From Dehalococcoidia bacterium (lineage in GTDB: Bacteria > Chloroflexota > Dehalococcoidia > Lucifugimonadales > UBA2985): a DNA stretch of 64,000 bases. Below are positions 15,275 through 36,689 of the stretch, in pieces. Below the pieces are notes generated by a model. The model saw nothing but the letters and a program-made list of their open reading frames with translations. It did no database searches and was not told the origin of the DNA. The stretch spans positions 2,208,819 to 2,272,818 of the forward strand of contig OZ253466.1 of assembly GCA_965261605.1 (NCBI GenBank), in the 5' to 3' direction. Position 1 is the stretch's first letter. Each line of letters starts with the position of its first letter. Made by a program: the position numbers and the translations under genes.

Positions 15275-16747
15275 TTGTTGATGAGCAAGACCTACCTTCC
15301 CTACGAACCCGACCAGCAGTTGCTGTTGCCGGCGGCGTTGCAGGAGTGGTTGCCTGACGACCATCTGGCCTACTTCATATCCGACGTGGTGGACCAGTTG
15401 GACATGTCAGAGGTCACCGCTCGCTACGAGCGGGAACGGCGTGGCGGGCCTCCGTATCATCCACGGATGATGGTCAAGGCGCTGCTCTACGGCTACTGCG
15501 TCGGGGTGGCGTCCTCACGCCGCATCGCCCAGCGTCTCCACGAGGACATCGCCTTCAGGGTGTTGGCGGCGAACAACACACCGGACTTCCGGACCATCTC
15601 CGACTTTCGCAAGGATAATCTGGATGCGCTGTCGGGCCTGTTCATACAGGTACTGGCGTTGTGCCAGCAGGCGGGGCTGGTGAAGCTGGGGCACGTGGCG
15701 CTGGACGGCACGAAGGTCAAGGCCAACGCATCGAAGCATAAGGCGATGAGTTATGGACGCATGAAGGAGAGGGAAGCGCAGTTGGCGGCGGAGGTAGCGG
15801 AGTTGTTGCGACAGGCTCAGGCAACGGATGAAGAGGAAGACCGGCGGTACGGCAAAGACAAGCGTGGAGATGAGTTGCCGGAGGAGTTGGCCTTTCGAGA
15901 GGGTCGGTTGGAGAAGATACGGGAAGCCATGGCGGCGCTGGAAGCCGAGGCGCAGGCGGCTGCCGAACAGGCCGAGACCGAAGGTGGTAAGCTCCCGGGT
16001 GTGCCCGATGACAAGGCCCAGCGCAACTTCACCGATACTGAGTCGCGCATCATCCCCGCGCCTGGAGGAAAGGACTTCCTGCAAGGGTACAACTGTCAGG
16101 CGGTGGTGGACAGCGCTCACCAGGTGATCGTGGCGGCGCGGGCCACCAACCAGACTTCGGATAAGCAACAGGCTGCGGCGATGATGGAGGAGACCATCGA
16201 CAACGTCGGCGCAGTCCCCAGGGAAGTATCCGCCGATGCCGGCTACTACTCGGCAAAGGCAGTCGACGAGCTTTATGCTCTGGGCGTGGACCCGTTCGTC
16301 GCGCCGGAGCAGACCCGCCACGGCCGGGTTGTGCCACCCGCGCCCCGAGGTCGCATACCCAGCCATCTGTCCCCCAGGGACCGGATGCGACGGAAGTTAC
16401 AGACCAAGCGGGGTCGGCAGCGCTACGCTTTGCGGATGCAAACTGTGGAGCCGGTATTCGGTCAGATCAAGCAGGGCCGGGGATTCCGGCAGTTCCTGCT
16501 GCGGGGACTGGAGAAGGTGAACGGCGAATGGTCGCTGATCTGCACGGGCCACAACCTGCTCAAACTGTTCCGCTTTGGGGTCAATCTGCACAGGAAAGCA
16601 CGGGGCGATGGGCCAGCCCAACGCATCAGGAACTTTTGCCGAGGTAGTGAGCACGGCGCTATTCGCAAAGCTATCTGGGATCTGGCCGGGGCAACCGGCA
16701 CAATTAATTGTCGCGATCCATTGTCGCTGACCCGCAAGCACCGTTAG
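15275..16747 (+). CDS. IS1182-family (IS5-like, DUF772 plus DDE) transposase
   Basis: N-terminus (LPYEPDQQLLLP...WLPDDHLAYFI...YHPRMMVKALLYGY) and DDE region (HVALDGTKVKANAS...ADAGY). The IS ends and inverted repeats were not identified. Confidence 0.8.
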   Translation: MLMSKTYLPYEPDQQLLLPAALQEWLPDDHLAYFISDVVDQLDMSEVTARYERERRGGPPYHPRMMVKALLYGYCVGVASSRRIAQRLHEDIAFRVLAANNTPDFRTISDFRKDNLDALSGLFIQVLALCQQAGLVKLGHVALDGTKVKANASKHKAMSYGRMKEREAQLAAEVAELLRQAQATDEEEDRRYGKDKRGDELPEELAFREGRLEKIREAMAALEAEAQAAAEQAETEGGKLPGVPDDKAQRNFTDTESRIIPAPGGKDFLQGYNCQAVVDSAHQVIVAARATNQTSDKQQAAAMMEETIDNVGAVPREVSADAGYYSAKAVDELYALGVDPFVAPEQTRHGRVVPPAPRGRIPSHLSPRDRMRRKLQTKRGRQRYALRMQTVEPVFGQIKQGRGFRQFLLRGLEKVNGEWSLICTGHNLLKLFRFGVNLHRKARGDGPAQRIRNFCRGSEHGAIRKAIWDLAGATGTINCRDPLSLTRKHR

Positions 16748-18811: not shown

Positions 18812-19095
18812 CGCCCAGCCGGAGTTGACGGCGTGGGGGAGGTCGTACCCCTCCCCTGCACAGATGGGGCGGAAGGGGGACCATTCCTCGCGGGGGACGA
18901 TGGGACGACCGGGGCGACCAAGGGGATACTCGCTAACGTCCGGGTTGCGGTTTGTTAAAGGGTTGCTCCTTCATGCAAATGAATTTGGCCTTGACAGTTA
19001 GGCGGGAGGTCCGACTTCAGACCGCCCGCCTTGGGTGATGTGAGCACTCTTACACCAACTCAGATTATACTAGATATCGCAACTTCGAGGGAAAA

Positions 19096-19131
19096 GTGGA
19101 ACCCCGCCAGCGCGCGCTGGCGGGGTTCCAC
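19096..19131. terminator. bidirectional intrinsic terminator
   Basis: Perfect 17-bp stem GTGGAACCCCGCCAGCG / CGCTGGCGGGGTTCCAC with a 2-nt loop, flanked by GAAAA upstream and TTTG downstream. Confidence 0.6.
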
Positions 19132-19482
19132 TTTGTCTGATGGGAGTTGCGCAATTTTCTCTGAGTCGGTTCCAAGACCGAACCCGGTCTGAATCATTGC
19201 TGCCCTGATGGGCTTGGAGCAGCCTTGCGTTCTCTCGTTTCGGCACCACATCGACCACTAGCATTACTTGGAGCCACATCCTGACCGATTAGTTTACGGG
19301 GAGCGGCAGCCGGACCCATAAAGGCATGTGGACGCTTACTTTATGCTCAAACCTAGCTATAAGGCCCGCCTTTTCGGAAGCAGAGAGTTCTTCAAACGGA
19401 CGGTTCAGCACGGCCTCGCTGAATAGGTTGCAGATTCACCCAGCCCCCAAATTGGGCATTTCAACCCGCACACTAATACTAG

Positions 19483-20595: not shown

Positions 20596-21486
20596 CTAAA
20601 CTAGACCGACCGACACCCGCCGAGGCAGTGCCAGTGTTGCTGGTTGCCAACACAGGTAGGGACACCCTCGTTGGTGTAGATGCCGTCCTGTAGCCCGCTG
20701 TTCCGCGCCCGGCGTATGTGAATGACTGGTACTGCCCCTTTCGCAATTACATAGCGGTGATTTGCCTGAGAGTCGTAGCCTTTGTCGCCAATCACATACC
20801 CAGGCCGAAACCAAGGGTAGGCGTCGGCTGCTCCGTCTATGAGCGTGGGCAACTCCGAAACATCGTTGCGGCTGGCCGTCGTTAACAATACCCCAAAGAG
20901 GAATGCCATGCTCGGCGTCAGCGGCGACGTGAAGCTTGTAGCCGAAGCTCCACTCCGTCCCGTTCTTCGCACCCGGTCTGGTGCTGGTCTTGGCCGTCCA
21001 GCTGGCTTCGGGATCGCTGATCGGGTGCCTGTTGGGATTGGAGTAACTGCTGACGACGGTGCTGTCCACCGCGACCTTATCCCCCAAGTTGGGAAGGTAG
21101 TCGCGTAGCCTGTCGGTCGCGGTCGTGGTGGCGAGCTGCACTAGGTCTAAGTGGAGGCTAACCCTGGAGAAGAATCGGCTGAACGTAGACCTTTGAGGTA
21201 GCGCTTTGAAGCCACAGATGCGGCGAAGGCGCGGTTCTTCCTGTAGTCTGCGAATGAGGGCGCTGGTGCTGGGTATGTTCAGGATGTAACTCAGAAGAAC
21301 GGCCCGCCAGAGGGCTTCTACAGAGTAGCCAGACCGCCCCCTCCACCTGCTGCCGGTCCATCGGTACAGCCGGAGCCGCTCAAGCAAGGCCGTAGCATCC
21401 ACGCTGTTGAGTATTGCCTTGACTTCAGTGAGGCTAGGCCCCACTTGAGCCGATGATATGGTTGTCATAGAATGAGGTAACGCCAT
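20596..21486 (-). pseudogene. IS4/IS5-superfamily DDE transposase, frameshifted
   Basis: The N-terminal part (...VAVDSTVV...FGYKLHVAADAEHGIPL) is in one frame. The continuation (TASRNDVSELPTLIDGA...YVIGDKGYDS...) is in the overlapping ORF 20601-20972. Confidence 0.65.
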
Positions 21487-22317: not shown

Positions 22318-23844
22318 ATGACAGTTTCCAGACAGGAGCTTGAGTCTAAGCTGTGGCAGGCCGCAGACATCCTGCGGGGCCAGATAGACTCGGCGGACTA
22401 CAAGAACTATATCTTTTCCATCCTCTTCCTGAAACGCCTCTCGGACCGCTTCAACGAGGAGGTGGAGCAGGCCGTGGCCTCTGGCATCTCGCATGCGGTG
22501 GCCATCGAAGACCGCGACGAGCACGAGTTCTTCGTGCCGGAGACCGCCAGGTGGACAGCGATTACAGGGGCATCAATGAACCTTGGGGAGACGCTCAACG
22601 TCGCTGGCCACGAAATCGAAGACCTCAACCCCAGGCTGGACGGCGTGCTGACCGGCACTAACTGGAACGACGAGAGCAAGCTGGGCAGCCCGGCAAACCG
22701 GGAGAGCATCATCCGAAGCCTGCTCAACCACTTCGGGGACATGGATTTGAGCGATGAGAACCTGCGGGAGGACGATGCAGGCGGCGGCAATGTGTTGGGC
22801 GACGCCTACGAGTACCTGATCAACCGGTTCGCGGACGATGCCGGCAAGAAGGGCGGCGAGTTCTATACGCCCCGCTCGGTGGTGCGCCTCATAGTTGAAC
22901 TGCTGGAGCCGTCGGAGGGGATGCGCATCTGCGACCCTACGGCAGGCTCCGGCGGTATGCTCATTTACACAGCCCAGTACGTTAGGGAGAAGGGCGGAGA
23001 CCTGCGCAACCTGGCGCTTCATGGGCAGGAGCGCAACCTTGGTACCCTGGCAATCGGCAAGCTCAACCTGCTGCTGCACGGGCTGCGATCCCCTCGGCTG
23101 GAGGCCGGAGACGTTATCGCCGAACCGGGCCTGGTTGACGATGCGGGACGACTTCTCTCCTACGACAGGGTCGTCGCCAATCCCCCCTTCAGCCTCAAGA
23201 GTTGGGGGCACGACTTCGCGCCCAACGACCCGCACCATCGCTTCGACCGCTACGGCGCCATCCCGCCCAAGACCAAGGGCGACCTGGCCTTCCTGCTTCA
23301 TATGCTGGCGGTGACCAATGCCCAGGGCATGGTGGGGGTGGTCATGCCCCACGGCGTCCTGTTCAGGGGCGGCGCGGAGGGCAAAATACGCAAGGGCATA
23401 GTTGAGGCAGACCTGTTTGAGGCGATCATCGGTCTGGCGCCCAACCTCTTCTTCGGTGCAAGCATACCCGTGGCCATCTGTGTGCTGAACAGAGCCAAGC
23501 CGCCGGAGCGCAGGGGCAAGGCGCTGTTCGTGGACGCATCTCAGCCCGGCAGCTTTCGACAAGGCAGGGCGCAGAACTTCATCGACCAGGAGCACATCGA
23601 CAGGATAGTGGAGGCGTACAGCGCATTTGAGGACGTGGACCGCTTCGCCCACGTCGCGGACCTGGAGGAGATACGGGGCAACGACTTCAACCTGAACATC
23701 AGCCGGTACGTGGACACCACTGAAGTCGTAGACGTAATGAGCGTGGAGGAGGCCCTCACCCAGCTGCGAGACGCGGAGCGGAGGCGGGACGAGGCCGTAT
23801 CGAAGATGGACGCGCTGCTAAGGGAGATGGGCTACGTCCGGTAG
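22318..23844 (+). CDS. hsdM: Type I R-M system N6-adenine DNA methyltransferase subunit
   Basis: HsdM N-terminal domain (LWQAADILRGQIDSADYKNYIFSILFLKRLSD), SAM motif (DPTAGSGGML), and catalytic NPPF (VVANPPFSL). The start was chosen at the ATG after the GGAGGA SD. Confidence 0.92.
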   Translation: MTVSRQELESKLWQAADILRGQIDSADYKNYIFSILFLKRLSDRFNEEVEQAVASGISHAVAIEDRDEHEFFVPETARWTAITGASMNLGETLNVAGHEIEDLNPRLDGVLTGTNWNDESKLGSPANRESIIRSLLNHFGDMDLSDENLREDDAGGGNVLGDAYEYLINRFADDAGKKGGEFYTPRSVVRLIVELLEPSEGMRICDPTAGSGGMLIYTAQYVREKGGDLRNLALHGQERNLGTLAIGKLNLLLHGLRSPRLEAGDVIAEPGLVDDAGRLLSYDRVVANPPFSLKSWGHDFAPNDPHHRFDRYGAIPPKTKGDLAFLLHMLAVTNAQGMVGVVMPHGVLFRGGAEGKIRKGIVEADLFEAIIGLAPNLFFGASIPVAICVLNRAKPPERRGKALFVDASQPGSFRQGRAQNFIDQEHIDRIVEAYSAFEDVDRFAHVADLEEIRGNDFNLNISRYVDTTEVVDVMSVEEALTQLRDAERRRDEAVSKMDALLREMGYVR

Positions 23845-23859
23845 GGGGAGGAGTGACCA

Positions 23860-24055
23860 ATGCCGACATTGTTGCGAGAGGGGTCCCTACCGGTTTTACT
23901 TCTATCTGGGCGACCGGCCGGAGCCGCCCCACGTGCACGTGCAGAGGGACAATCACATCGCCAAGTTCTGGCTGGACACGGTAGCGCTCCAGAGCAGCGG
24001 TGGATTGAGGCCCTATGAACTTAGACACGTCGAGCGTATCATACAGGAGCATTAA
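23860..24055 (+). pseudogene. DUF4160-family gene with a +1 frameshift after codon 7
   Basis: ATG-MPTLLRE is followed, in the +1 frame, by GPYRFYFYLGDRPEPPHVHVQRDNHIAKFWL..., which is the DUF4160 hallmark. The break is at the G4 run 23880-23883. No alternative start exists in the long frame. Confidence 0.5.
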
Positions 24056-24064
24056 GAATCATTC

Positions 24065-24421
24065 TTGAGGGAGTGGGTGTACGTTTCAACGACTGAAATC
24101 AACGTGCCGGAAGCCATGACGGTCTCTGTGACGGAGGATGTTCTTGCCGTCCAGCTGTCCGATGGGCGCGACATCTCTGTGCCGCTATCGTGGTACCCAC
24201 GGCTTGTGCACGCGACGACGGAGGAGCGAATCCACTGGGAACTCATCGGCGGCGGACAGGGCATCCACTGGCCCGACCTGGACGAAGACATCAGCGTCGA
24301 GATGCTGCTGGCGGGCCGCAAGTCCGGCGAGAGCCGGCGGTCCTTCAAGCAGTGGCTGGAAGCCAAACAGGCCGGGCTGGGCCTCACGCTGTATGAGCTT
24401 ACAGCCCATGAGCGGGAATGA
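24065..24421 (+). CDS. DUF2442-domain protein, the usual partner of DUF4160
   Basis: The sequence reads LAVQLSDGRDISVPLSWYPRLVHATTEERIHWELIGGGQGIHWPDLDEDISVEMLL. Confidence 0.65.
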   Translation: MREWVYVSTTEINVPEAMTVSVTEDVLAVQLSDGRDISVPLSWYPRLVHATTEERIHWELIGGGQGIHWPDLDEDISVEMLLAGRKSGESRRSFKQWLEAKQAGLGLTLYELTAHERE

Positions 24422-24465
24422 CAACAACAGGGCGATGATGTCCAGTAAGGCGTAGGACGTGAAAT

Positions 24466-24666
24466 ATGCCCAAGGTTAGAAACGCGATCCGGCTCATAGA
24501 GAGAGACGGCTGGAGGTTGGCTCGGACCCGGGGCAGCCACCGCCATTACCATCACCCCGACAAGCCCGGGACCGTTACCGTTCCGGGCCATCCGAGCGAT
24601 GATTTGCATCCAAAGACTTGGCGGGCTATTCTGAGACAAGCGGGAATTCAGGAGGGAGACCGATGA
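24466..24666 (+). CDS. hicA: HicA-family mRNA interferase toxin
   Basis: 66 aa; the sequence reads LIERDGWRLARTRGSHRHYHHPDKPGTVTVPGH. It overlaps hicB through ATGA. Confidence 0.8.
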   Translation: MPKVRNAIRLIERDGWRLARTRGSHRHYHHPDKPGTVTVPGHPSDDLHPKTWRAILRQAGIQEGDR

Positions 24667-25007
24667 AGCTGAAGTATGTGGTTGTCTACGAGAAGACCCC
24701 CAACAACTACTGCGCCTATCTGCCCGATTTGCCCGGCTGCATTAGTACGGGCAAGACCTGGGAAGACATACAAGGGATGATTCGAGAGGCTGTAGCCTTC
24801 CATATTGAAGCCATGATGGAACAGGGTGAACCGCTGCCGGAGAAGCCCATGTCCGTGGAAGAGGCTATGGCTCATCACTGCCAACCCCTGACCGAGCGCG
24901 AGAAGGAGACTCTGGCTGAGTACGGCGAAGCCGGCCCAACGATCTCGACCACCTTTCAGATGGTGGAGATTGAGGTTGCCGTCCCGGACGCTGCTAGGGC
25001 GGGGTGA
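24663..25007 (+). CDS. hicB: HicB-family antitoxin (UPF0150 fold)
   Basis: The sequence reads YVVVYEKTPNNYCAYLPDLPGCISTGKTWEDIQGMIREAVAFHIE. Its stop overlaps the hsdS start (GTGATGA). Confidence 0.8.
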   Translation: MKLKYVVVYEKTPNNYCAYLPDLPGCISTGKTWEDIQGMIREAVAFHIEAMMEQGEPLPEKPMSVEEAMAHHCQPLTEREKETLAEYGEAGPTISTTFQMVEIEVAVPDAARAG

Positions 25008-26278
25008 TGATCGGCAGGACGCACGTTCCCGATGGCTGGCAGGTGGCGCGCCTGGGGGATGTGGCGGAGGTCAATCCAAGACGGCCACGACTGAATGTCC
25101 CAGATGACACCCAGATAAGCTTCCTGCCAATGGCGGCAGTCGGTGAGCGTTTGTCTGGGGTCATTGAACGCCAGGACCGCCCCTATCGCGAAGTATCAAG
25201 TGGCTACACCTATTTTGAAGAGGGTGATGTCATATTCGCGAAGATTACGCCATGTCTCCAGAACGGCAAACACGCTCTTTTGGGTGATCTGCCCAATAGG
25301 TTCGGTTTCGGTTCTACTGAGTTCCATGTAGTGCGCGCTGATAGCCAAATGGATCCGCGACATCTGTTTCGCGTATTGACTCAGCCACAGAACATTCGAG
25401 AGTGCGTCAATAGCTTTACAGGAACTGCCGGACAACAGCGTGTGCAACCAGAAGTGCTGAAATCCCTTCCCATACTCCTGCCTCCCTTGCAGGAGCAGCG
25501 GGCAATTGCCGCCGTGCTGGACTCCATTGATGACGCCATTGAGCGCACGGAGGAGGTCATCGCAGCCACGGAGCGCCTGCGGGACGCCCTGCTCCACGAG
25601 CTTCTCACCCGCGGCGTCCCCGGCTGGCACAGCGAGTGGAAGGAAGCGCCGGGCATCGGCACAATCCCGGCGTGCTGGGATGTGGTGCGGCTGGGGGATG
25701 TGGTGGAGGTACGCAACGGGACCACGCCTTCTCGCGCTGAGACAAACTATTGGCAGGACGGAGACGTTCCGTTTATCAAGACAGGACAAGTGAACGATAC
25801 TCTTATTGAAGTACCCGATGAGTTCATTACATCTCAGGCAGTTGCTTCGGCAGGGGCTGTGGTTGTCCCAAGGGGATCTGTATTGATTGCTATGATTGGG
25901 CAGGGCAAGACTCGCGGGATGACTGCACAGCTTAAGATTGACGCAGCAATTAACCAGAATTTCGCTGCCGTGTTCGGAGCGGACGGAGATTTCAGCTTAG
26001 ATTTCTTCTTCACTTGGGCTAGGCAAAATTATTCTCACATTCGCGCTCTCGGGCAAGGGTCAAATCAGGACGCTCTGAATTGCGCCCTTATCGAAGGTAT
26101 GCGTGTGCCAAAACCAACTTTAGCTGAGCAGCAGACCATAGTGGCAGTGGCGAATAGTATGGATGACGCCATAGAGCAGGCGAGCCAGGAACGGGATGGG
26201 TTACAATTGCTGAAGGCGTCGGCCGCGGACGCGCTGCTCACGGGGCGCGTGCGGGTGCCTCTGGGAGGTGACTCATAG
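25004..26278 (+). CDS. hsdS: Type I R-M system specificity subunit (two TRDs)
   Basis: Two TRD plus conserved-region repeats (LPPLQEQRAIAAVLDSIDDAIERTEEVI and PKPTLAEQQTIVAVANSMDDAIEQASQE). The second TRD is visibly richer in AT. Confidence 0.88.
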   Translation: MMIGRTHVPDGWQVARLGDVAEVNPRRPRLNVPDDTQISFLPMAAVGERLSGVIERQDRPYREVSSGYTYFEEGDVIFAKITPCLQNGKHALLGDLPNRFGFGSTEFHVVRADSQMDPRHLFRVLTQPQNIRECVNSFTGTAGQQRVQPEVLKSLPILLPPLQEQRAIAAVLDSIDDAIERTEEVIAATERLRDALLHELLTRGVPGWHSEWKEAPGIGTIPACWDVVRLGDVVEVRNGTTPSRAETNYWQDGDVPFIKTGQVNDTLIEVPDEFITSQAVASAGAVVVPRGSVLIAMIGQGKTRGMTAQLKIDAAINQNFAAVFGADGDFSLDFFFTWARQNYSHIRALGQGSNQDALNCALIEGMRVPKPTLAEQQTIVAVANSMDDAIEQASQERDGLQLLKASAADALLTGRVRVPLGGDS

Positions 26279-27534
26279 TGCCTTACTATCATGTCCGCAT
26301 TACGTCAAAACCCGCTCTATCCAAGGTTGATGTAGAGCTTGACCTTAATCTGGAAAAGTTAACAAATCGTTTTATCGACCCTTACAAGAAAGGCACACCT
26401 ATAGTCATTGATGGACGAGCAATAGCTGCTGAAGATGTCGGGCGTATTCAGATAAACAAAACCGACCAAGACTCGGCATACCTTAACGCGACAATATTGG
26501 AGCAATATAGAGCGAGGAGAACCGTCGTGGGGGTTGATCACAGAGGTCGATTGTCTGCAGCTCTCCTCGCCAACAACGGAGAGGATGTGACAGACGAATT
26601 CATCACTGGCCCACCGGGTAGTGAATCCGAGTCTGCCTCTCACTCTTCACAGGAGGTTAGACCCGCAACAGGCACTCGAGATGTCTTTGTAGTTCATGGG
26701 AGGAATACTGAAGCCCGCGATGCTCTATTCGAGTTCCTGAGGGCAATTGACCTCCATCCGCTGGAGTGGTCCGAAGCTGTACGTGCCACAGGCAAGCCAT
26801 CACCTTATATTGGAGAGATTCTGGATGCTGCCTTTTCCCGGGCGCACGCGGTTGTAGTTCTTTTTACACCAGATGATGAGGCTAGACTGAGAGAACAGTT
26901 CCGAATTGACAGCGACCTTCTCCACGAGACTCAACTGACCGGTCAAGCCAGACCCAATGTCCTGTTTGAAGCCGGCATGGCAATGGCCAGAGACCAAGAC
27001 CGGACTGTTCTGGTAGAGCTTGGCAACTTGCGACCATTCAGCGATGTTGCCGGGCGTCATGCCATACATCTAGCCAACAATTCACAGCGGAGGCAAGAAC
27101 TAGCACAACGCTTAGAGGCGGCAGGCTGTCCAGTGAACTTGCAGGGAACTGACTGGCATACAGCGGGCGATTTTGAAGCCGCGCTTGCTTTGCTGACACA
27201 AGGGTTATCTGAGCCTATGGCCGTTGAGGAGCAGCCATCAAACAACGCCGCGTATCCGCAGCTATCGGATGACGCAAAAGAACTTCTCGTTGCAGCAACG
27301 AAGAGCTCAGCCAGAGAGATACTCAAAGCAGCGGCTTCTGGTGGTCTGACGATACAGGCAAATGGTAAGAGCTTTACCGAGAGGGGCAATGCAAAGTCAG
27401 AGGCTAGATGGGAGCAAGCCCTTGAGGACCTCTTGGACTACGGACTCGTTACAGACCCAAGAGGCAAAGGCCAAGTTTTTGAGGTCACACACAGAGGTTT
27501 TGAAGTTTCTGATGGGCTAGGGACTTCGGAATAA
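26278..27534 (+). CDS. three-domain protein with a central TIR-like nucleotide-binding domain (COG4271 / CAP12-PycTIR type) and unknown N- and C-terminal domains
   Basis: The GTG start overlaps the hsdS stop (TAGTG). The core reads DVFVVHGRNTEARDALFEFLRAIDLHPLEW...AHAVVVLFTPDDEARLR...ARPNVLFEAGMAMA...RTVLVELG. Confidence 0.7.
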   Translation: MPYYHVRITSKPALSKVDVELDLNLEKLTNRFIDPYKKGTPIVIDGRAIAAEDVGRIQINKTDQDSAYLNATILEQYRARRTVVGVDHRGRLSAALLANNGEDVTDEFITGPPGSESESASHSSQEVRPATGTRDVFVVHGRNTEARDALFEFLRAIDLHPLEWSEAVRATGKPSPYIGEILDAAFSRAHAVVVLFTPDDEARLREQFRIDSDLLHETQLTGQARPNVLFEAGMAMARDQDRTVLVELGNLRPFSDVAGRHAIHLANNSQRRQELAQRLEAAGCPVNLQGTDWHTAGDFEAALALLTQGLSEPMAVEEQPSNNAAYPQLSDDAKELLVAATKSSAREILKAAASGGLTIQANGKSFTERGNAKSEARWEQALEDLLDYGLVTDPRGKGQVFEVTHRGFEVSDGLGTSE

Positions 27535-27554
27535 CTCCATTCGCAGGGTGCAAA

Positions 27555-27617
27555 ATGCATACACCTAGTTCAACCAAGCTCAACGAGTACAACCACGCGG
27601 AGGAGCCGTGTCGATGA
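27555..27617 (+). pseudogene. hsdR 5' stub A (20 codons: MHTPSSTKLNEYNHAEEPCR-stop)
   Basis: The 35 nt at 27574-27608 are identical to 29695-29729 at the start of the full-length hsdR. Confidence 0.7.
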
Positions 27618-27904
27618 ACAGAGATGAAGCGCTTGACCTGCTCAGGACGCACAAGCCGGCGCTTGCGGAGCGCTTTGGCGTAACCGGTCTCGCTCTGTTC
27701 GGCTCTTTCGCCCGGGACCAGGCCACGGACAGCAGCGACGTCGACATCCTTGTCGAGTTTGTCGCACCCCCTGACTGGAAGGCCTATTTCGGGGTGGTGT
27801 CTTATTTGGAGGACATCCTTGGCAGGCCGGTGGATGTGGCCACTATTTCGGAAGTGCGGAAGGAGATACGCCCGTTCGTTGAGAGGGACGCTGTTCATGT
27901 TTGA
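27614..27904 (+). CDS. MNT-type nucleotidyltransferase (antitoxin of a HEPN/MNT module)
   Basis: The sequence reads LALFGSFARDQATDSSDVDILVEF (GSxxR...DxD). It overlaps the HEPN gene through ATGTTTGA. Confidence 0.8.
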   Translation: MNRDEALDLLRTHKPALAERFGVTGLALFGSFARDQATDSSDVDILVEFVAPPDWKAYFGVVSYLEDILGRPVDVATISEVRKEIRPFVERDAVHV

Positions 27905-28268
27905 TTCCCGAGAGCAGGAGCGCCCTTGGAGCTTCTACGTCCAGGACATGCTGGATTTTGCGGAAACGGTCTTGGGCTATACCTCTGGGCTGGACATGGA
28001 CGCATTTGTCGCCGACCGAAGAACCTATGACGCCACTCTGCGCAATATTCAACTGATCGGCGAGGCTGCCACTCATGTCCCTGCTGATGTCCGAGAAGCC
28101 TATACGTCCATTCCATGGCACGCAATGATAGGGACTCGAAACCGCCTGGCTCACGCCTACCTGCATATCAGCGACGCCATCCTTTGGTCGATAATCCAGG
28201 ACGCCATTCCAGGTCTGGTACCCCAGCTACGAAAGCTATTGGAAGACGTCCGACGGGAGTCGCCATGA
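27897..28268 (+). CDS. HEPN (DUF86) toxin
   Basis: It contains the Rx4H motif (GTRNRLAHAY). The start is taken at the ATG overlapping the MNT stop. Confidence 0.8.
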   Translation: MFDSREQERPWSFYVQDMLDFAETVLGYTSGLDMDAFVADRRTYDATLRNIQLIGEAATHVPADVREAYTSIPWHAMIGTRNRLAHAYLHISDAILWSIIQDAIPGLVPQLRKLLEDVRRESP

Positions 28269-28348
28269 CTTCCACCACCGCCAAGCTCAACGAGTACAAC
28301 CACGCTGAGGAACCGGCGCGCCGGCTGCTGGAGCAGCTACGTGCGTAG
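28265..28348 (+). pseudogene. hsdR 5' stub B (27 codons: MTSTTAKLNEYNHAEEPARRLLEQLRA-stop)
   Basis: 28265-28338 aligns with 29682-29752 (the hsdR start) with one 3-nt indel and a few mismatches. Its ATG overlaps the HEPN stop (ATGA). Confidence 0.8.
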
Positions 28349-28358
28349 TTGGCGGGGA

Positions 28359-28367
28359 TGGTATAAT
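28359..28367 (+). promoter_or_regulatory. extended -10 promoter element (TGgTATAAT) ahead of the 283-aa/PIN pair
   Basis: A TGG-TATAAT sequence lies immediately after stub B. A strong SD (GGAAGGAGGAGG) follows before the 28415 start. Confidence 0.4.
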
Positions 28368-28414
28368 TCTCTTCAGAGCAACGATCGCGCTCAGGCGTTG
28401 GGAAGGAGGAGGCG

Positions 28415-29266
28415 GTGATGACACAGCTATACCTGACCTTTGAAGGGCCGCGTATCAGTAAGCATGGGGTGCCGGTAGACGCCCTTGTCTCCGCGCTCCA
28501 AGGCATCCAGGACGCCCTACAGCTGATGGTCGAGCACCTGGCGAATTACCAACGCAAGCGCGGTAAACCTCCCAAGTGGATTAAGGACCAGAGCGTCTTG
28601 CAGCTTTCAGCCACTCGCCCGGGCTCTTTTGTGGCCGAGCTGACTCTGGACCCCGACGCTATAGACTCAGGCATATCGGAACGCTACGGAGAGCGGGCTC
28701 TCCACGCGTTCCAGCATTGGAGCGGGGGATACGGTTCTACCCTTCCCAAATCTGTAGTGGACAGGCTCTGGAGGATACCACCCAAAATCCCCGTAGACGT
28801 GCAACTTTGGCTGGGCGATGCTGAGGTTCTAAGAAGAGTGGTGATCGTACCCAGGAACGGATTCAGTGAGCGTGTTCCGTATCAAGCTCAAAAGACTGAA
28901 GAGGCCTTGGTATACGGCTGGCTTAAGATGGTCAACTGGGACAAGCGAACGGCCCAACTCCACCGCTACGGAGACCGTTATGTGCCGTTGCGGTTCGACC
29001 CCGATTTGGACGATGAGATGCGCCGTCTCGCAACTCAGTTCGTTGAGGTTAAAGGCGAGGGACGCTTTAACAACAACGAACAGTGGCAGTCGGTAAAGGT
29101 GGAAGAAATCACTGCTACGCGCTCCAGTAGTGAGCCCTTTGACATGGAGGCGTTTTTGAAGAATCCCAACCCTAAGATCTTCGATCCTGAGACCGTAGTC
29201 ACCGCGAGCGAACCCTTTGACGTGGACGAGTTCATACGCGTAGTCCGTGAAGGCCGAGACGCCTAA
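28415..29266 (+). CDS. 283-aa protein of unknown function, upstream partner of the PIN protein
   Basis: Good SD. The stop overlaps the PIN start (TAATG). The C-terminal tail carries a duplicated SEPFD(M/V)(E/D)(A/E)F motif. I recognise no domain. Confidence 0.5.
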   Translation: MMTQLYLTFEGPRISKHGVPVDALVSALQGIQDALQLMVEHLANYQRKRGKPPKWIKDQSVLQLSATRPGSFVAELTLDPDAIDSGISERYGERALHAFQHWSGGYGSTLPKSVVDRLWRIPPKIPVDVQLWLGDAEVLRRVVIVPRNGFSERVPYQAQKTEEALVYGWLKMVNWDKRTAQLHRYGDRYVPLRFDPDLDDEMRRLATQFVEVKGEGRFNNNEQWQSVKVEEITATRSSSEPFDMEAFLKNPNPKIFDPETVVTASEPFDVDEFIRVVREGRDA

Positions 29267-29685
29267 TGGTTACAGGTCTCCGGCTGGTAGTTGTGGACAC
29301 AAGTGTCGTATCCATCATTTTCAATCGAGCTCGAGATTGGCGGGCTCCGTTTTATGAGGGACACTTGGAAGGGCGGCAGGCTATTGTATCGTTCCAGACG
29401 CTGGAAGAGATACATTTCTGGCCTCTTGCCAATGACTGGGGTGAAAGACGACGAAACGAATTGATGCAGCACATGGCTCAATACGAGGTCATTTGGCCCG
29501 ACATAGCCTTAGTTAATATCTCTGCACAACTGCGTATAGAGCGAGTGCGGGCTGGACATAGTTTAAACACCGCCGACGCTTGGATTGCTGCAACCGCTCT
29601 TTATTTGGATTGCCCACTAGTAGCTGATGACGGAGATTTTGAAGGTGCCCCGGGGCTGGAACTCATACGAGCGCCACGACATTGA
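29266..29685 (+). CDS. PIN-domain ribonuclease (VapC-like toxin)
   Basis: Acidic PIN residues appear in VVVDTSV, TLEE, TADAWIAATA and VADDGDF. The stop overlaps the hsdR start (TTGA). Confidence 0.75.
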   Translation: MVTGLRLVVVDTSVVSIIFNRARDWRAPFYEGHLEGRQAIVSFQTLEEIHFWPLANDWGERRRNELMQHMAQYEVIWPDIALVNISAQLRIERVRAGHSLNTADAWIAATALYLDCPLVADDGDFEGAPGLELIRAPRH

Positions 29686-32600
29686 CTTCCACGGCCAAGC
29701 TCAACGAGTACAACCACGCGGAGGAGCCGGCGCGCCGGCTGCTGGAGCAGCTTGGCTGGACGTACGTTACGAGAGAGGCACTAGCATCTGAGCGGGGAGA
29801 CGAGCGGGAGGCGCTTCTAAAGGGCAGACTGAGGCGGGCGCTGCTGCGGCTCAACGAGTGGATGACGGAGGAGCAGGCGGAGCGGGCCATATTCAACCTG
29901 GAGCGTATCGAGGCGACTGGCATGGCCCGCAACCAGGCCGCCCACGAGTACCTCACCTACGGAATGCCCCTGACGGTGGACTCAACCCGGGGCCGGGAGA
30001 CGCGCACCGTCCGCTTCTTTGACTTCGACCATCCAGAAGGCGGCCTCAACGAGTTCGTGGTCACCACGCAATTCCGCGTCAGGCGCAGCAATGAGCGCGG
30101 CGGCCCGGAGGACGACGAGCGGATGGTCATCCCGGACCTTGTGCTATTCGTAAACGGCATCCCCCTGGTGGTGATGGAAGCCAAATCGCCGTCCCTAATG
30201 GACGTGTGGAAATCCCAGGCGGTACGGCAGCTGCGCCGCTACCAGGAGGCCGGGCCGGAGTGGCGCAGCTGCGGCGCTCCGGAGCTGTTCCACTACAATC
30301 TGATGTGCGTCGCGCACTGCGGGGCCGCTGCTGTGTACGCAGCACAGGGCGCGTCGGAGGATGCCTACTTCGAGTGGAAGTCCGTCCTGCCTTACTCGGA
30401 TGATGAGGTGAGGCAGCGCTTCGGCGTAGAGCCGCTGGGCCAGGCGCAGCTCATCGTAGGGCTGCTGTCCCCGTCGTCGCTGCTGGACGTGCTGCGGGAC
30501 TACGTCATATACGAGCCGGAGCGAGGACGCCTGACGAAGAAGCTGCCACGCTACCAGCAGTATCGCGCTGTGCGGTCGGCCGTGAAGCGCATCCTGTCGG
30601 GCGGCAAACCGGAAGAGCGCGGCGGTGTCGTGTGGCACACCCAGGGGTCCGGCAAGTCGCTGACCATGCTTTGGCTGGCGACCAAGGTGCGACGAGAGCC
30701 GCGGCTCGCCAACGCCACTATTGTCGTCGTCACAGACCGGACGCAGCTCGACAGGCAGATAGCCGCCACTTTCGAGCGTTGCGGCTTCCCCGCGCCTGAG
30801 CAAGCAAGTAGCACCCGAGACCTGCGGCGCCTGCTGACGACAGGCGTTGGCCGCACTGTGATGACCACCATACAGAAGTTCGAGGAGGCGTTGACAGCCA
30901 CAGGAGAAGACCTAGACGTGCTGAACCCATCCAATAACGTCATTGTGATGGTGGACGAGGCGCACCGCACCCAGTACGGGACCCTGGGAGCCCGAATGTC
31001 TCAGGGCCTGCCCAACGCTACCCTCATCGGCTTTACGGGCACTCCAATAGACAAGGACTTTCGCAGAAGCACCATGCGCCGTTTCGGACCTCTCATCGAC
31101 TCCTACACCATCCCCCAGTCCGTGGCCGATGGAGCGACCGTGCCAATACTCTACGAGGCGCGTCTGCCGGAACTGGCTATAGAAGGGCCAGAGACGCTGG
31201 ACAGGCTATACGAGGCCATGTTCGGAGACCAGCCGCCAGAGGTGCAGGAGCAGATACGACGCCGCTATGCCAACAAGGAGACGGTGGCCGAGGCGGAGCG
31301 TCGCATAGAGATGATTGCCCTGGACATCTCGGAGCACTTCAAGTCGAAGATACGTCCCAATGGGTTCAAGGCGCAGGTGGTCGCGCCCAGTCGCCGCGCC
31401 GCCCTGCGCTACGCCGAGTACCTGAACAACTTCGGCCTGCGGGCTTACCCGATAATCACTACGACTTCCGGCGACGGGCCGGAGTTCAGGATACCCCGGG
31501 AACTTGAACAAGAGCAGATTACAAGTGCCTTTGTAGACCCCAATGGGGAGCCGGAGGCGCTGGTAGTCGTGGACATGCTGCTAACGGGCTTCGACGCTCC
31601 CGTGGAGCAAGCGCTGTACCTGGACCGGGCCCTGAAAGAGCACGGCCTGCTCCAAGCCATTGCCCGGGTGAACCGCAGATTCTCCCACGAGTGGGACGGG
31701 GTCGTCACAGACAAGTCAGAGGGCATCGTGGTCGACTACCACGGCGTGTCTCGTGATCTGGAGAAAGCGCTATCCAGCTTTGATTGGCCTGATGTTCAGG
31801 ATTCTATGCGACGGATGGAGGAAGACCCGGTGCAGGTGGTAGAGTCGGCGGCGGTCCGGGCAGAGGCCCACTTCAAGGGACACAACCTGAGTGACACGTG
31901 GGACTGCGTAGGGGTCTTCGCGCCGGATGCCGATACGGAGGGCAACTTCAAGGCCGACCTGTTCGAGCGATTCAACGCGGACTACCGCCAACTCACACGG
32001 CTGATGGACCGCTTCCTTCCGGATCCGCGAGCTCTGCCTTACGCAGACCGGCTGGCGAGGCTCACTGAGATACGGGCCTACGTCCGCTCGCACTTCCTAC
32101 GAGAAGACGCCGCTACCAACTGGACAGAAATTGGAGCGAAGGTCAAGAAACTGGTGGACGAGCGCATCAGCGCTCGCGTGCGGGATCTGATGAGTCCAGT
32201 GTCAATACTCGACCAGGACTTTGACCAGAAGATAGCGGGTTTGCCCCACGACGAGGCGCGGGCTTCCGTTATGGAGCACTCCATACGAGCGCAGATACAT
32301 GAGAGGCTGGCAGACAACCCCGTGTATTTCGAGAGGCTTTCGGCGCAGCTTGAGCGCATCATCCAGGACCTTCGCAATCGTCTGATAGACTCCGCGGAGG
32401 CGTGCCTGCGAATGGAACCGATTCTGCGGCAAGCGCGAAGCGAGGCGGATGTCGCCGCCGAGCACGGCCTGTCGCCAGTGGCTTTCGCCATCCTAGAGCT
32501 GCTCAGCGGTGGGTCAGGGGAGGTCGGCTCCGCGGCTCGAGTGCGTGAGAGTCAATCCCCCTACCACGCAAATCTGGACGATGAGGCGAAGAACGTCGCC

Positions 32601-32789
32601 ATCAGGGTGGAATCAGTGGTAGCCCGTCACAGTAGCGTCGTGGATTGGCAATCGAACGAGGATATCAAGCGGCAGATGCGCCGGGACATAAAGCGCGAGC
32701 TGAGACCTACGGGTGAATATACCGAACAGCAACTGGATGAACTGGCGAGCCGGATCGTGGAGCTTGCCGGTCGCAGGAGCGGGCAGTGA
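29682..32789 (+). CDS. hsdR: Type I R-M system restriction (helicase-nuclease) subunit
   Basis: 1035 aa with the HsdR N-terminus (EEPARRLLEQLGW), nuclease region (DLVLFVNGIPLVVMEAK), Walker A (QGSGKSLT), DEAH (MVDEAHRTQ) and helicase motif VI (QAIARVNR). It has a TTG start. Confidence 0.92.
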   Translation: MTSTAKLNEYNHAEEPARRLLEQLGWTYVTREALASERGDEREALLKGRLRRALLRLNEWMTEEQAERAIFNLERIEATGMARNQAAHEYLTYGMPLTVDSTRGRETRTVRFFDFDHPEGGLNEFVVTTQFRVRRSNERGGPEDDERMVIPDLVLFVNGIPLVVMEAKSPSLMDVWKSQAVRQLRRYQEAGPEWRSCGAPELFHYNLMCVAHCGAAAVYAAQGASEDAYFEWKSVLPYSDDEVRQRFGVEPLGQAQLIVGLLSPSSLLDVLRDYVIYEPERGRLTKKLPRYQQYRAVRSAVKRILSGGKPEERGGVVWHTQGSGKSLTMLWLATKVRREPRLANATIVVVTDRTQLDRQIAATFERCGFPAPEQASSTRDLRRLLTTGVGRTVMTTIQKFEEALTATGEDLDVLNPSNNVIVMVDEAHRTQYGTLGARMSQGLPNATLIGFTGTPIDKDFRRSTMRRFGPLIDSYTIPQSVADGATVPILYEARLPELAIEGPETLDRLYEAMFGDQPPEVQEQIRRRYANKETVAEAERRIEMIALDISEHFKSKIRPNGFKAQVVAPSRRAALRYAEYLNNFGLRAYPIITTTSGDGPEFRIPRELEQEQITSAFVDPNGEPEALVVVDMLLTGFDAPVEQALYLDRALKEHGLLQAIARVNRRFSHEWDGVVTDKSEGIVVDYHGVSRDLEKALSSFDWPDVQDSMRRMEEDPVQVVESAAVRAEAHFKGHNLSDTWDCVGVFAPDADTEGNFKADLFERFNADYRQLTRLMDRFLPDPRALPYADRLARLTEIRAYVRSHFLREDAATNWTEIGAKVKKLVDERISARVRDLMSPVSILDQDFDQKIAGLPHDEARASVMEHSIRAQIHERLADNPVYFERLSAQLERIIQDLRNRLIDSAEACLRMEPILRQARSEADVAAEHGLSPVAFAILELLSGGSGEVGSAARVRESQSPYHANLDDEAKNVAIRVESVVARHSSVVDWQSNEDIKRQMRRDIKRELRPTGEYTEQQLDELASRIVELAGRRSGQ

Positions 32790-33514
32790 GTGAGAGCAGC
32801 GTCATCCGATTCGGCGACACGACCATTCTATACCAGGTCCGGCGCAGCGGGAGGCGCAAGAAGACCGTGCAAATCACAGTCGACGGTGGTGGTGTGCAGG
32901 TTGCCGCGCCAATGGCAACACCGGAGAGCGACTTACGGGCAATCGTAAGGAAGCGGGCGCCTTGGATTCTGAGCCATGCCTCAGAGGGTATGCTTGAAGC
33001 CGCGCACAAGCGTTTCGTCAGCGGCGAGACGCTTCCGTATCTGGGCCGCAACGTCCGCATTGTAGTCGAGTCCGGGAATGTGCGTTCTCCTGAGGTGCGC
33101 TTCGATCATTGGCGGTTTCGGATAGTTGTACCGGAGGGTATTGGCGATGTTGAACGCTTTGGCTCGGTACGTCGGGCCGTTATTGCGTGGTACCGTTTAC
33201 GTGCAAAGGAACGGCTGACGGCCAGCGTTGGGCGGTGGTGGCCACGACTGGGCAGTGGAGAAAACTCGCCTGTGCTCATCCGAGACCAGCGCCAACGTTG
33301 GGGAAGTTGCGCGCCTGATGGCACGCTGCGGTTCAACTGGCGCGCAGTGATGTTGAAGCCGGCACTTATCGAATACGTTGTCGTACACGAGTTGGCCCAC
33401 CTCACACACCGGAACCACTCCAGGGACTTTTGGGGATTAATGTCCAATGTACTGCCGGATGTGCAGAAAAGACGGAAGGCCCTGCGGGAGGCGGGGCGAG
33501 TATTGCCTTTGTGA
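32786..33514 (+). CDS. DUF45/YgjP-type (M48-like) zinc metallopeptidase commonly linked to hsdR
   Basis: It contains HExxH...H (VVHELAHLTHRNHSRDFW). Its GTG start overlaps the hsdR stop (GTGA). Confidence 0.8.
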   Translation: MSESSVIRFGDTTILYQVRRSGRRKKTVQITVDGGGVQVAAPMATPESDLRAIVRKRAPWILSHASEGMLEAAHKRFVSGETLPYLGRNVRIVVESGNVRSPEVRFDHWRFRIVVPEGIGDVERFGSVRRAVIAWYRLRAKERLTASVGRWWPRLGSGENSPVLIRDQRQRWGSCAPDGTLRFNWRAVMLKPALIEYVVVHELAHLTHRNHSRDFWGLMSNVLPDVQKRRKALREAGRVLPL

Positions 33515-35272: not shown

Positions 35273-36481
35273 CTAAGTTGTGAGGTAGTCCGCCCACTGC
35301 TGCATGAGGGTCCGCCGTCGTACGAACAGGTCGGACCTGGCGTAAGCCTGCTCGACACTGCCCCCGAGCTGGTGTGCCAGGGCCGCCTCCGCGACAGCCC
35401 AGGGCGCGTCCGTCTGCTCCATTGACCATGTCCTGAAGGACGTCCTGAAGCCGTGCACAGTCGCCCGCTCCGCAAGGCCTGTTGCACGGAGAATCTTCGT
35501 CAGCGTCATGTCGCTCAGCATCCGGCCGCGGAGCAGGGGAGAGGGGAAGCACAGACCTGACCCACCCTGGAGTTCGCGGGCGAGTGTCAATACCCCCACT
35601 GCCTGATTGCTGAGCGGTACCCGGTGCTCTTCGCCTGCCTTCATACGGGAGCCCGGTATCGTCCACGTAGCGCCTTCCATATCGATCTCATTCCAAGTTG
35701 CGCCCCTTGCCTCACCGGAGCGCGCCGCCGTGAAGACCAGGAACGCTAGGCAGAGCTTCGAAGCGGGTGAGGTCTGGGACGCATCGACGGTCCTGAGGGC
35801 CGCGCCCACTTCCTCGTAGGGTAGCGCCCTGAGATGCGCCTTGACCTTGGGCATCGACGGCAGGGCCCCGTCTATGGCTTCCCCTGCCGGGTTGCCCTCG
35901 ACGAGCTCGTTGGCCATGGCCCACCTGAATATCGTTCGCATCCTCTGCCTGACTCGCCGGGCGGTCTCGGGGCGCGTCGACCATATGGGTGTAAGGACTG
36001 CCAGCAGGTCGCTGCGGCTTATGGTGTCGACAGGCTTGTTGCCGATCTTTGGGAAGGCGTGTCGTTCGAGGGTCTGGATCCACCCTGACGTGTGGCTCCC
36101 GTTGCGCCAGCGAGGCTTGTTGGCTTCGTGCACAGCATAGGCAGTCTCTCGGAAGGTGGGCATCGCCGGCCTGTGCTTCTCCGCAACTGGGTCCCTCCCA
36201 TTGCCAACCGCCTCGCGGTTGTAGGATGCACGCTTCCTAGCCTGGGCTAGCGACACAGACGGATACCCTCCCAGGCCTATATCGCGCCGCTTGCCGTCGA
36301 TGGTTATCCGCTGCACCCAGCTCTTGCCGCCCGACTTGCTTATGAAGAGATGCAGGCCGTCGCCGTCCGTGTGGCGGCCCGGCTCACTGAGCGCCTTCAC
36401 TTCTGTTGCCGAAAACTTCACGCCAGGTGGCCTCCTCAACTTGTTACCACGCAAATTACCACAATAGAGGCGAGATAGCAA
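35273..36481 (-). CDS. int: P4-type tyrosine integrase (DUF4102 arm-binding N-terminus)
   Basis: The N-terminus reads DGDGLHLFISKSGGKSWVQRITIDGKRRDIGLGGYPSVSLAQARKRA. Catalytic residues appear in TAARSGE, TVHGFRTSFRTW, ALAH and YARSD. The true start may be the GTG at 36421. Confidence 0.9.
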   Translation of the reverse strand: MLSRLYCGNLRGNKLRRPPGVKFSATEVKALSEPGRHTDGDGLHLFISKSGGKSWVQRITIDGKRRDIGLGGYPSVSLAQARKRASYNREAVGNGRDPVAEKHRPAMPTFRETAYAVHEANKPRWRNGSHTSGWIQTLERHAFPKIGNKPVDTISRSDLLAVLTPIWSTRPETARRVRQRMRTIFRWAMANELVEGNPAGEAIDGALPSMPKVKAHLRALPYEEVGAALRTVDASQTSPASKLCLAFLVFTAARSGEARGATWNEIDMEGATWTIPGSRMKAGEEHRVPLSNQAVGVLTLARELQGGSGLCFPSPLLRGRMLSDMTLTKILRATGLAERATVHGFRTSFRTWSMEQTDAPWAVAEAALAHQLGGSVEQAYARSDLFVRRRTLMQQWADYLTT

Positions 36482-36616
36482 GGGATTGCGGGGGAGTGCC
36501 GGGGAGGCCTCGACCTGACTAATCAGGCCTTAATGATACCTGCTACAGCTACGGTAAGGGGCCTAAATGAGACACACTGGGACGGCTATGGAACGCATAG
36601 GAAGAGGGGAGAGAAG

Positions 36617-36689
36617 TGGAGCTGAGGGGAGTCGAACCCCTGACCTCCTCCGTGCAAAGGAGGCGCTCTCCCAACTGAGCTACAGCCCC
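36617..36689 (-). tRNA. tRNA-Ala (anticodon UGC), CCA not encoded
   Basis: Reverse complement is GGGGCTGTAGCTCAGTTGGGAGAGCGCCTCCTTTGCACGGAGGAGGTCAGGGGTTCGACTCCCCTCAGCTCCA. It folds as a cloverleaf with the G3:U70 Ala identity pair. Confidence 0.92.

Follow-up and report, generated by a model that had tools for sequence, protein, structure and literature searches.

By what route do accessory defence genes enter a Type I restriction-modification (R-M) operon, and how do they come to pile up there? The question is raised by a 64,000-nucleotide stretch of DNA from a Dehalococcoidia bacterium (assembly GCA_965261605.1, contig OZ253466.1, positions 2,208,819 to 2,272,818; hereafter the window), whose region 22318-33514 is one co-oriented Type I R-M operon. 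Between the specificity gene hsdS and the restriction gene hsdR of this operon lie three cassettes of toxin-antitoxin or defence type, and the start of hsdR is present three times, once in the intact gene and twice as short dead copies that we call stubs. We put a probability of about three in four on the reading that such cassettes accumulate by one-sided recombination, in which a short-homology or illegitimate join is made on one side and a homologous crossover on the other.

Pfam scans give the gene order of the operon as hsdM, DUF4160/DUF2442, HicAB, hsdS, TIR, stub A, MNT-HepT, stub B, unk283-PIN, hsdR and YgjP. The part of it that bears on the question is listed here in window coordinates; L numbers denote individual related loci, described below.

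25004..26278, + strand: hsdS, specificity subunit (Pfam Methylase_S, 5e-33)
26278..27534, + strand: cassette 1, TIR-domain protein of 418 amino acids (Pfam CAP12-PCTIR_TIR, 3e-27; PADLOC PDC-S35, 7e-21)
27555..27617, + strand: stub A, dead copy of the hsdR start (27574-27608 identical to 29695-29729)
27614-27904, + strand: cassette 2, MNT nucleotidyltransferase antitoxin (Pfam NTP_transf_2, 2e-14; PADLOC PDC-S09, 1e-26)
27897-28268, + strand: cassette 2, HepT, a HEPN RNase toxin (Pfam HepT-like, 7e-26)
28265..28348, + strand: stub B, dead copy of the hsdR start (hsdR homology over 28266-28338)
28339..28414, + strand: left edge of cassette 3 (aligned with the regions upstream of unk283 in L022, L003, L002, L006, L039 and L044)
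28415-29266, + strand: cassette 3, unk283, a protein of 283 amino acids (no Pfam domain; weak PADLOC PDC-M32A match, 8e-05)
29266-29685, + strand: cassette 3, PIN-domain protein (Pfam PIN, 8e-11)
29682..32789, + strand: intact hsdR, 1035 amino acids, TTG start (Pfam HSDR_N, SWI2_SNF2, ResIII, T1R_D3-like and T1RH-like_C)

The original prediction, made from the letters of the window, was that the first codons of hsdR occur three times in the same orientation. Indeed, the 25-nucleotide core of the hsdR start, CCAAGCTCAACGAGTACAACCACGC, has exactly three copies in the 64 kb, all on the + strand, at 27574, 28281 and 29695, and has no match in 100 dinucleotide-preserving shuffles. Stub A is identical to the intact gene at 35 of 35 positions in the aligned segment, as had been claimed, while its first 19 nucleotides are unlike hsdR; the open reading frame (ORF) at 27555-27617 spans 20 codons and reads MHTPSSTKLNEYNHAEEPCR before its stop. 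In stub B, positions 28266-28338 correspond to 29683-29752, where 67 of the 70 aligned bases agree and one 3-nucleotide indel occurs (91.8% over 73 columns by BLAST), and the ORF at 28265-28348 reads MTSTTAKLNEYNHAEEPARRLLEQLRA before its stop. The indel had been reported correctly, but the mismatches, given as two, number three, with an A/T difference in the start codon besides. The intact gene starts with TTG and both stubs with ATG; relatives mostly begin hsdR with ATG and less often with GTG, TTG or CTG. The TTG may lower hsdR translation in this genome.

Each copy follows a different module, and the three junctions are as predicted. The TIR stop ends at 27534 and the ATG of stub A stands at 27555, leaving a gap of 20 nucleotides; the HepT TGA (28266-28268) overlaps the stub B ATG (28265-28267) as ATGA; and the PIN TGA (29683-29685) overlaps the hsdR TTG (29682-29684) as TTGA. 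A fourth junction had been overlooked. The stop of stub A overlaps the MNT start codon (ATGA, 27614-27617), and because of this overlap stub A may now serve as a translationally coupled leader for MNT. Stub B is followed at 28339-28348 by what are apparently the last ~10 nucleotides of a donor hsdS (ACGTGCGTAG), a probable remnant of that gene's 3′ end. The left edge of cassette 3 then presents a conserved TGGTATAAT element (28359-28367) and a GGAGGAGG ribosome-binding site. A sigma-70 scan did not call a promoter at 28359-28367 because a −35 element is absent, and the element, conserved among loci, appears promoter-like only.

The HEPN and PIN genes were correctly recognized as accessory modules, but they are not single genes. 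HepT pairs with MNT, the two genes being adjacent and overlapping by 8 nucleotides (27897-27904), with the motifs FGSFARDQATDSSDVDI (GSxxR...DxD) in the MNT translation and RNRLAH in that of HepT. PIN pairs with the 283-residue partner; the unk283-PIN pair is present in at least 10 loci, with unk283 always 5′ of PIN, and unk283 may be an uncharacterised large antitoxin or a sensor. Nested as they are in a defence operon, the TIR and MNT genes match PDC-S35 and PDC-S09, candidate families that were themselves defined by embedding in defence operons.

Does this arrangement belong to one genome or to a family of loci? A scan with the hsdR protein over one genome per species yielded 80 related loci whose hsdR is 64-80% identical, making 81 with the window, nearly all of them from metagenome-assembled genomes of Dehalococcoidia, Caldilineaceae and other Chloroflexota. 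Many of the 80 records are chromosome-level by title (“chromosome: 1”), and record names alone suggest that several come from sponge symbionts. Their ORF maps simply take the longest ORFs, a crude procedure, and probably include some spurious antisense “genes”. In these loci the same few modules recur between hsdS and hsdR in varied combinations. TIR stands alone before hsdR in L053 and L014, MNT-HepT alone in L012, and unk283-PIN alone in L006, L039 and L044; TIR and MNT-HepT occur together in L024 and L026, and L079 has the array TIR-stub-MNT-HepT-stub-PIN-like-hsdR, close to that of the window. Other cassettes encode Phd-PIN, MazE-PIN, DUF2971, DUF3644, DUF6414, a trypsin-like protease, and AbiJ-like or Mrr-like proteins, and the gap is empty in only about 5 of 78 loci on the crude ORF map.

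The suggestion that each module once sat immediately upstream of an hsdR gene is borne out by these relatives, in which every module of the window is found natively right before an intact hsdR with a matching ATGA or short-gap junction. HepT overlaps an intact hsdR as (A/G)TGA in L012, L024, L026, L032 and L040, which supports stub B as the start of an hsdR that formerly followed HepT. Likewise, PIN overlaps an intact hsdR as ATGA in L006, L039, L021 and L022, and with an overlap of the (A/G)TGA type in L052.

Stubs are also widespread. A DNA profile of the first ~150 nucleotides of hsdR (cut-off E<1e-3) detected the hsdR 5′ end 33 additional times, in 24 of the 81 loci. Every one of these copies has the orientation of hsdR and lies no more than about 3.5 kb upstream of it; L003 has four and L028 three. 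The opposite strand of the 81 loci gave no matches to this profile, and for four equally long control segments from inside hsdR extra copies turned up in 0, 1, 0 and 0 loci. What is duplicated is therefore the 5′ end specifically, and the duplication is no peculiarity of a single assembly. Decayed stubs were recognized by eye after TIR in L026 and L024 and before MNT in L056, L032, L040 and L078. The 80 loci hence provide both the alternative cassette occupancy at hsdR starts and the similar stubs that had been anticipated for related genomes.

This recurrence agrees with the proposal that the hsdS-hsdR junction is a capture hotspot, but the further claim that a stub is left at each step does not hold. 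Some hsdR genes that are 94-98% identical follow different single cassettes with no stub. Ordinary two-sided cassette replacement also occurs, and there are steps that leave no stub behind.

Stubs were also sought in 67 further hsdR loci from metagenomes, most of them distant (33-40% identical). In the AT-rich locus L100, hsdR nucleotides −33 to +147 are duplicated 925 nucleotides upstream with a 182-residue ORF between the copies; the stub itself lies at L100:5382-5534, and the duplication includes the ribosome-binding site. Another locus carries at L118:3544-3611 a clear stub of its own, different hsdR N-terminus, and L083 has a long-stub/MNT junction in common with L076 and L080. The scores of L100, L118 and L083 are 206, 46 and 45, compared to 34 for the best opposite-strand control. 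L100 and L118 represent unrelated Type I R-M hsdR lineages. The footprint is therefore not confined to one lineage, although it is far commoner in the Chloroflexota loci than in the distant set.

What joins the stubs to the sequences that follow them? Stubs begin at the hsdR start codon or a few bases before it, whereas their ends spread from about 45 to 165 nucleotides into hsdR (profile positions from 58 to 165). The sequence after a stub is very often an hsdS 3′ end rather than the start of a cassette gene. A search with an hsdS 3′-end profile placed such a copy directly after the stub in L002, L022, L035, L054 and L074, and shorter tails (...LLTGRVRV and a stop) were seen by inspection in L003, L009, L047, L071, L005, L050, L057 and the window. 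After the hsdS tail come a TGnTATAAT element and a ribosome-binding site, as between intact hsdS and unk283 in L006, L039 and L044. The incoming DNA would therefore be an “hsdS-cassette-hsdR” segment of another Type I locus, cut within the hsdS 3′ end.

Several of these joints fall at short homology between hsdR, where E(A/V)LLKGRL is encoded at nucleotides ~135-160, and the DALLTGRV of hsdS, with 5-17 nucleotides of similarity at several stub junctions. In the window the hsdS 3′ end at 26227-26255 (...DALLTGRVRV) has short homology to hsdR around 29807 (repeat families D2 and D6). Family D2 is a 17-nucleotide repeat, GGAsGCGCTkCTmAmGG, that codes for (D/E)ALL and occurs at 23808-23824, 26227-26243 and 29807-29823; these sites belong to the 3′ ends of hsdM and hsdS and the 5′ region of hsdR, respectively, and in other loci the similarity coincides with joints. 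In close hsdR pairs, homology begins sharply at the start codon, which fits crossovers in hsdR. The joint that creates a stub is usually an illegitimate or short-homology one, linking the hsdR 5′ region to a foreign hsdS 3′ end or to the left edge of a cassette.

A different kind of exchange is suggested by a junction that at least five loci share. A stub of ~54 nucleotides, followed within 5-10 nucleotides by the MNT start codon, is present in the window, twice in L003, and in L009 and L013, with decayed forms in L056, L032 and L040. The gene before this stub is TIR in the window and L009, DUF2971 in L013 and an unnamed gene in L003, and the DUF2971-to-ATG junction of L013 is the same as that seen where DUF2971 precedes an intact hsdR. 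One common junction behind different genes implies a crossover within the stub of at most 54 nucleotides. Such a crossover would be the simplest account, independent breaks at one nucleotide appearing much less likely. When each stub was compared with 80 hsdR 5′ ends, its own hsdR came out first for 14 of the 33 stubs and among the best five for 27. Stub A, for example, matches its own hsdR at 35 of 35 positions and the best other locus at 33 of 35.

From these observations we propose the following course of events. In a first step, a segment consisting of an hsdS 3′ tail, a cassette and hsdR from a related Type I locus would join the resident hsdR on its left, 45-165 nucleotides past the resident start codon; this join would be illegitimate or made at short homology, often at E(A/V)LLKGRL/DALLTGRV. 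At the level of sequence, it is this left join that the anatomy of the junctions shows. The right side would then be resolved by an ordinary homologous crossover deeper in hsdR. As an outcome, the resident upstream cassette would remain intact, the old hsdR start would be left as a stub, and a complete hsdR start would be supplied by the incoming segment. In a third step, to which the shared junctions point, the stub-plus-cassette unit would enter other loci via crossovers inside the stub, which would then act as a short homology arm. Selection would presumably retain events in which hsdR and the resident cassettes stay undamaged, and toxin-antitoxin addiction may favour stacking above replacement.

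Applied to the window, this scheme would make stub A and MNT-HepT an old shared unit that moved between contexts by crossovers within the stub, while stub B probably records a separate event that brought unk283-PIN together with ~10 nucleotides of donor hsdS tail. One joint has no or only short homology. A left joint that varies and uses short homology, next to an hsdR that is intact and homologous on the right, is what homology-facilitated illegitimate recombination would be expected to produce. This process has been shown experimentally in transformable bacteria. The original interpretation, in which cassettes were stacked at the hsdR start, is supported with two refinements, which concern the origin of the stub joints and the mobility of the stub A unit. 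Specifically, recombination through the conserved hsdR 5′ end, which had been invoked for the stacking itself, fits the later exchanges through stubs but not the joint that makes a stub, which is usually not homologous.

Several points weigh against one-sided recombination. No donor-recipient pair was identified among the related loci. The finished product gives no direction to the event, since hsdR could have been the right anchor or, alternatively, hsdM/hsdS the left anchor with a stub from the donor. No stubs longer than ~200 nucleotides were seen, and a pure random-breakpoint model predicts no such limit; efficient homologous recombination of longer tails, or later deletion, may account for it. 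Stubs of 35-80 nucleotides carry a weak signal of being closest to their own hsdR, and stub B matches the L012 hsdR about equally to its own. Moreover, the hsdS-tail reading of 28339-28348 draws on ~10 nucleotides, and the array of the window is known from assembled sequence alone. The one candidate donor was L038 for L035; the two loci belong to one genome, have hsdR genes 96% identical and both carry DUF2971, but we rejected L038 on finding that the DUF2971 DNA is unrelated.

One-sided recombination might also be only part of the process. The stubs could be working sites rather than scars, that is, portable homology arms that make the hsdS-hsdR gap an integrase-free exchange site, where RecA-type homologous recombination alone inserts, excises and shuffles cassettes by capture, transfer and precise excision. 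Each excision would restore an in-frame hsdR, with an outcome analogous to that of attC-flanked integron cassettes, and indeed either window stub, recombined with the hsdR start, would yield an in-frame, full-length hsdR. Different upstream genes, each with its native junction to the ATG, precede one and the same stub/MNT junction, and stubs track the resident hsdR; stub A is 35/35 to its resident hsdR even though the closest MNT in the 80 loci is 82% identical in protein. However, we found no two near-identical loci set apart by a single stub-flanked cassette and nothing else, homology arms of 35-160 nucleotides are very short, and many stubs are decaying (L026, L024, L056, L032), as expected of unmaintained scars. 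We would sooner bet against such an exchange site than on it, while noting that it extends one-sided recombination and does not exclude it. If the stubs do work in this way, the locus would amount to an integron analogue without a recombinase and would permit rapid, reversible variation in toxin-antitoxin and defence content within populations.

The remaining explanations fare worse. Local duplication might have come first, through unequal exchange between sister chromosomes at the homology of the hsdS tail and the hsdR 5′ end, which would double the unit of hsdS tail, cassette and hsdR start in tandem, with one cassette copy later replaced or diverged. That short homology is real and stubs are closest to the resident hsdR; in addition, L003 has two copies of the 54-nucleotide stub with MNT, and L028 has a duplicated PIN 3′ end plus a stub. 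These duplicated units share 84-87% identity, too little for recent tandem copies, and unrelated gene families flank the stub in nearly all loci, the three cassettes of the window having only the stubs in common; we consider this origin unlikely, though it may apply to a few loci (L003, L028). It is highly improbable that a site-specific mobile element targets the hsdR 5′ end and supplies a replacement start, in the manner of elements that carry a copy of a tRNA 3′ end. Direct repeats that flank cassettes do resemble attL/attR, and 2.5 kb downstream a tyrosine integrase gene (35273-36481) stands beside tRNA-Ala, but stub ends spread over more than 100 nucleotides with no fixed core, cassettes encode toxin-antitoxin, Abi or defence-type proteins only and no recombinase, no inverted repeats bound them, and the hsdS 3′ tails at the junctions indicate another R-M locus as the source. 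Stubs that belong to a mobile element with its own hsdR-like end had been named as an observation that would overturn the original prediction. To that restricted extent stub A moves together with its cassette, but neither a recombinase, a fixed core nor an inverted repeat accompanies it.

Least probable of all is an assembly chimera in which strain variants were joined through the shared hsdR start. The window seemingly derives from a metagenome-type genome that is known only as an assembly, the PIN, HepT and YgjP proteins had no exact matches in other collections, and a 22-mer across junction B had none in metagenome_contigs. Against this, the stub A/MNT junction recurs in the independent assemblies L003, L009 and L013, and stubs of the same kind are present in 23 other loci, several of them titled chromosome-level. 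A chimera formed via a shared repeat, moreover, cannot make stub-to-MNT or stub-to-hsdS-tail joints, because no simple single-cassette variant has them. The recurrence of the junction together with the stubs in chromosome-level loci excludes an artifact of assembly in practice, as the original prediction had required of its reading.

Two familiar systems were considered and rejected as descriptions of the array. An integron is rejected given that no integrase lies in or beside the array and no inverted-repeat elements lie between its cassettes. A site-specific integrative element is rejected given that there is no fixed core crossover, the stub ends ranging from about 45 to 165 nucleotides. 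Pfam scans of the window revealed no recombinase inside the cassette array.

The rest of the operon contains the following features.

22318..23844, + strand: hsdM, Type I methyltransferase (Pfam N6_Mtase, 3e-95; HsdM_N, 3e-24)
23860-24055, + strand: DUF4160-like gene, apparently frameshifted (Pfam DUF4160, 9e-07)
24065-24421, + strand: DUF2442 gene (Pfam DUF2442, 5e-22)
24466-24666, + strand: HicA (Pfam HicA_toxin, 4e-23)
24663-25007, + strand: HicB (Pfam HicB_lk_antitox, 2e-14)
32786..33514, + strand: YgjP-like metallopeptidase gene (Pfam YgjP-like, 7e-53)

All three Type I subunits are thus co-oriented, carry their signature domains and, at the sequence level, have intact ORFs, with two target-recognition domains in hsdS. 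The mechanical ORF of hsdM runs from 22132, the ATG at 22318 being the likelier start, and the gene is 74-88% identical to those of related loci. The hsdM-hsdS gap is itself occupied by DUF4160 and DUF2442, a small two-gene cassette that is found at the same spot in many related loci, and by the HicA/HicB toxin-antitoxin cassette, in which the HicB stop overlaps the hsdS start. In the DUF4160-like gene (23860-24055), the N-terminal MPTLLREG... and ...YRFYFYLGDRPEPPHVHVQRDNHIAKFWLD... are in different frames, reflecting either a pseudogene or a sequencing error. Extra hsdM 3′ ends were observed in this gap at L003:2623-2681 and 3323-3475 and at L002:4396-4447, adjoining DUF4160-DUF2442 or HicAB cassettes, the same type of scar at the other variable gap. 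No hsdS 5′ stubs were seen in the hsdM-hsdS gap of the window. At the other end of the operon, the YgjP-like gene overlaps the hsdR stop and is kept 3′ of hsdR in nearly all 80 loci, and it would seem to be the fourth constant gene of this Type I R-M family.

The operon has several mobile-element neighbours. Upstream are an insertion-sequence-type DDE transposase gene (DUF772 and DDE_Tnp_1; 15275-16747, + strand) and a truncated transposase relative (20596-21486, − strand), and 2.5 kb downstream the tyrosine integrase (35273-36481, − strand) adjoins tRNA-Ala (36616-36689, − strand). The entire R-M locus may lie on an integrated island. A perfect 42-nucleotide palindrome with 21-nucleotide arms and no spacer (AAAGTGGAACCCCGCCAGCGC/GCGCTGGCGGGGTTCCACTTT) is located at 19093-19134.

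The footprint described here provides an answer to how defence genes pile up inside R-M operons. Accessory genes nested in such operons have been used to discover immune systems (“guilt by embedding”), while their route of entry had been left open. Stubs and hsdS tails together form a readable record of insertion, which would indicate that cassettes come from other Type I loci, that insertion is additive and that hsd genes serve as the recombination anchors. A dead copy of the hsdR start is moreover a simple signature by which cassette boundaries and the order of acquisition might be read in any genome. The suspicion that this footprint had gone undescribed agrees with our search of the literature, in which hsdR fragments described as truncated, partial or duplicated turned up only in unrelated staphylococcal and E. 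coli cases and nothing comparable was found.

PrrC in EcoprrI is a known example of a gene embedded in a Type I R-M operon. Embedded defence genes have since been surveyed systematically in Type I R-M, BREX, DISARM and Hma systems (Payne et al. 2024, bioRxiv 10.1101/2024.01.29.577857), and TgvAB is embedded in the VPI-2 Type I R-M operon of V. cholerae (PMC11411939). As in our loci, co-oriented accessory defence or toxin-antitoxin genes are nested between hsd genes. The embedded-gene papers catalogue content and leave its origin open, citing the idea of a “genomic sink”, whereas the stubs and hsdS tails constitute a mechanistic footprint; the words “recombination”, “truncated”, “remnant” and “hsdR” do not appear in the text of the Payne preprint (bioRxiv 10.1101/2024.01.29.577857).

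Integron arrays likewise consist of tandem, promoter-poor, co-oriented cassettes with a short repeated element between them, which enter beside a fixed point. Here, however, there is no IntI, attI or attC hairpin, the repeat is a variable-length piece of a neighbouring gene, and recombination is general (homologous or illegitimate) rather than site-specific. Integrative elements that duplicate tRNA 3′ ends resemble our cassettes in that the insert carries a replacement for the displaced part of its target, producing direct repeats and leaving the target intact. They differ in having a site-specific recombinase and a fixed crossover site, neither of which is seen here, and in duplicating a 3′ end, whereas in our loci it is the 5′ end that is duplicated.

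The nearest described process is sequential displacement in the orphan immunity arrays of type VI secretion systems (T6SS) and in the displacement arrays of Rhs and contact-dependent inhibition (CDI) loci. Homology-facilitated illegitimate recombination is a process put forward for the T6SS effector-immunity arrays of V. cholerae and for Rhs loci (Kirchberger et al. 2017, PMC5361080). In those arrays, as in the operon examined here, modules are added beside a conserved gene while older ones are displaced but kept, pieces of that conserved gene persist as scars of its displacement, and an illegitimate joint is combined with a homologous one, which in our operon would lie in hsdR, without an integrase. 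The anchor there is the 5′ part of a toxin gene, whereas here it is the 5′ end of the downstream restriction gene. What remains as a scar here is a 5′ stub, often running on into an hsdS 3′ tail. The cargo also differs, consisting here of toxin-antitoxin and defence cassettes within an R-M operon. Finally, whereas a new toxin domain is swapped in at the T6SS, Rhs and CDI loci, each event in the R-M operon appears to restore hsdR to function.

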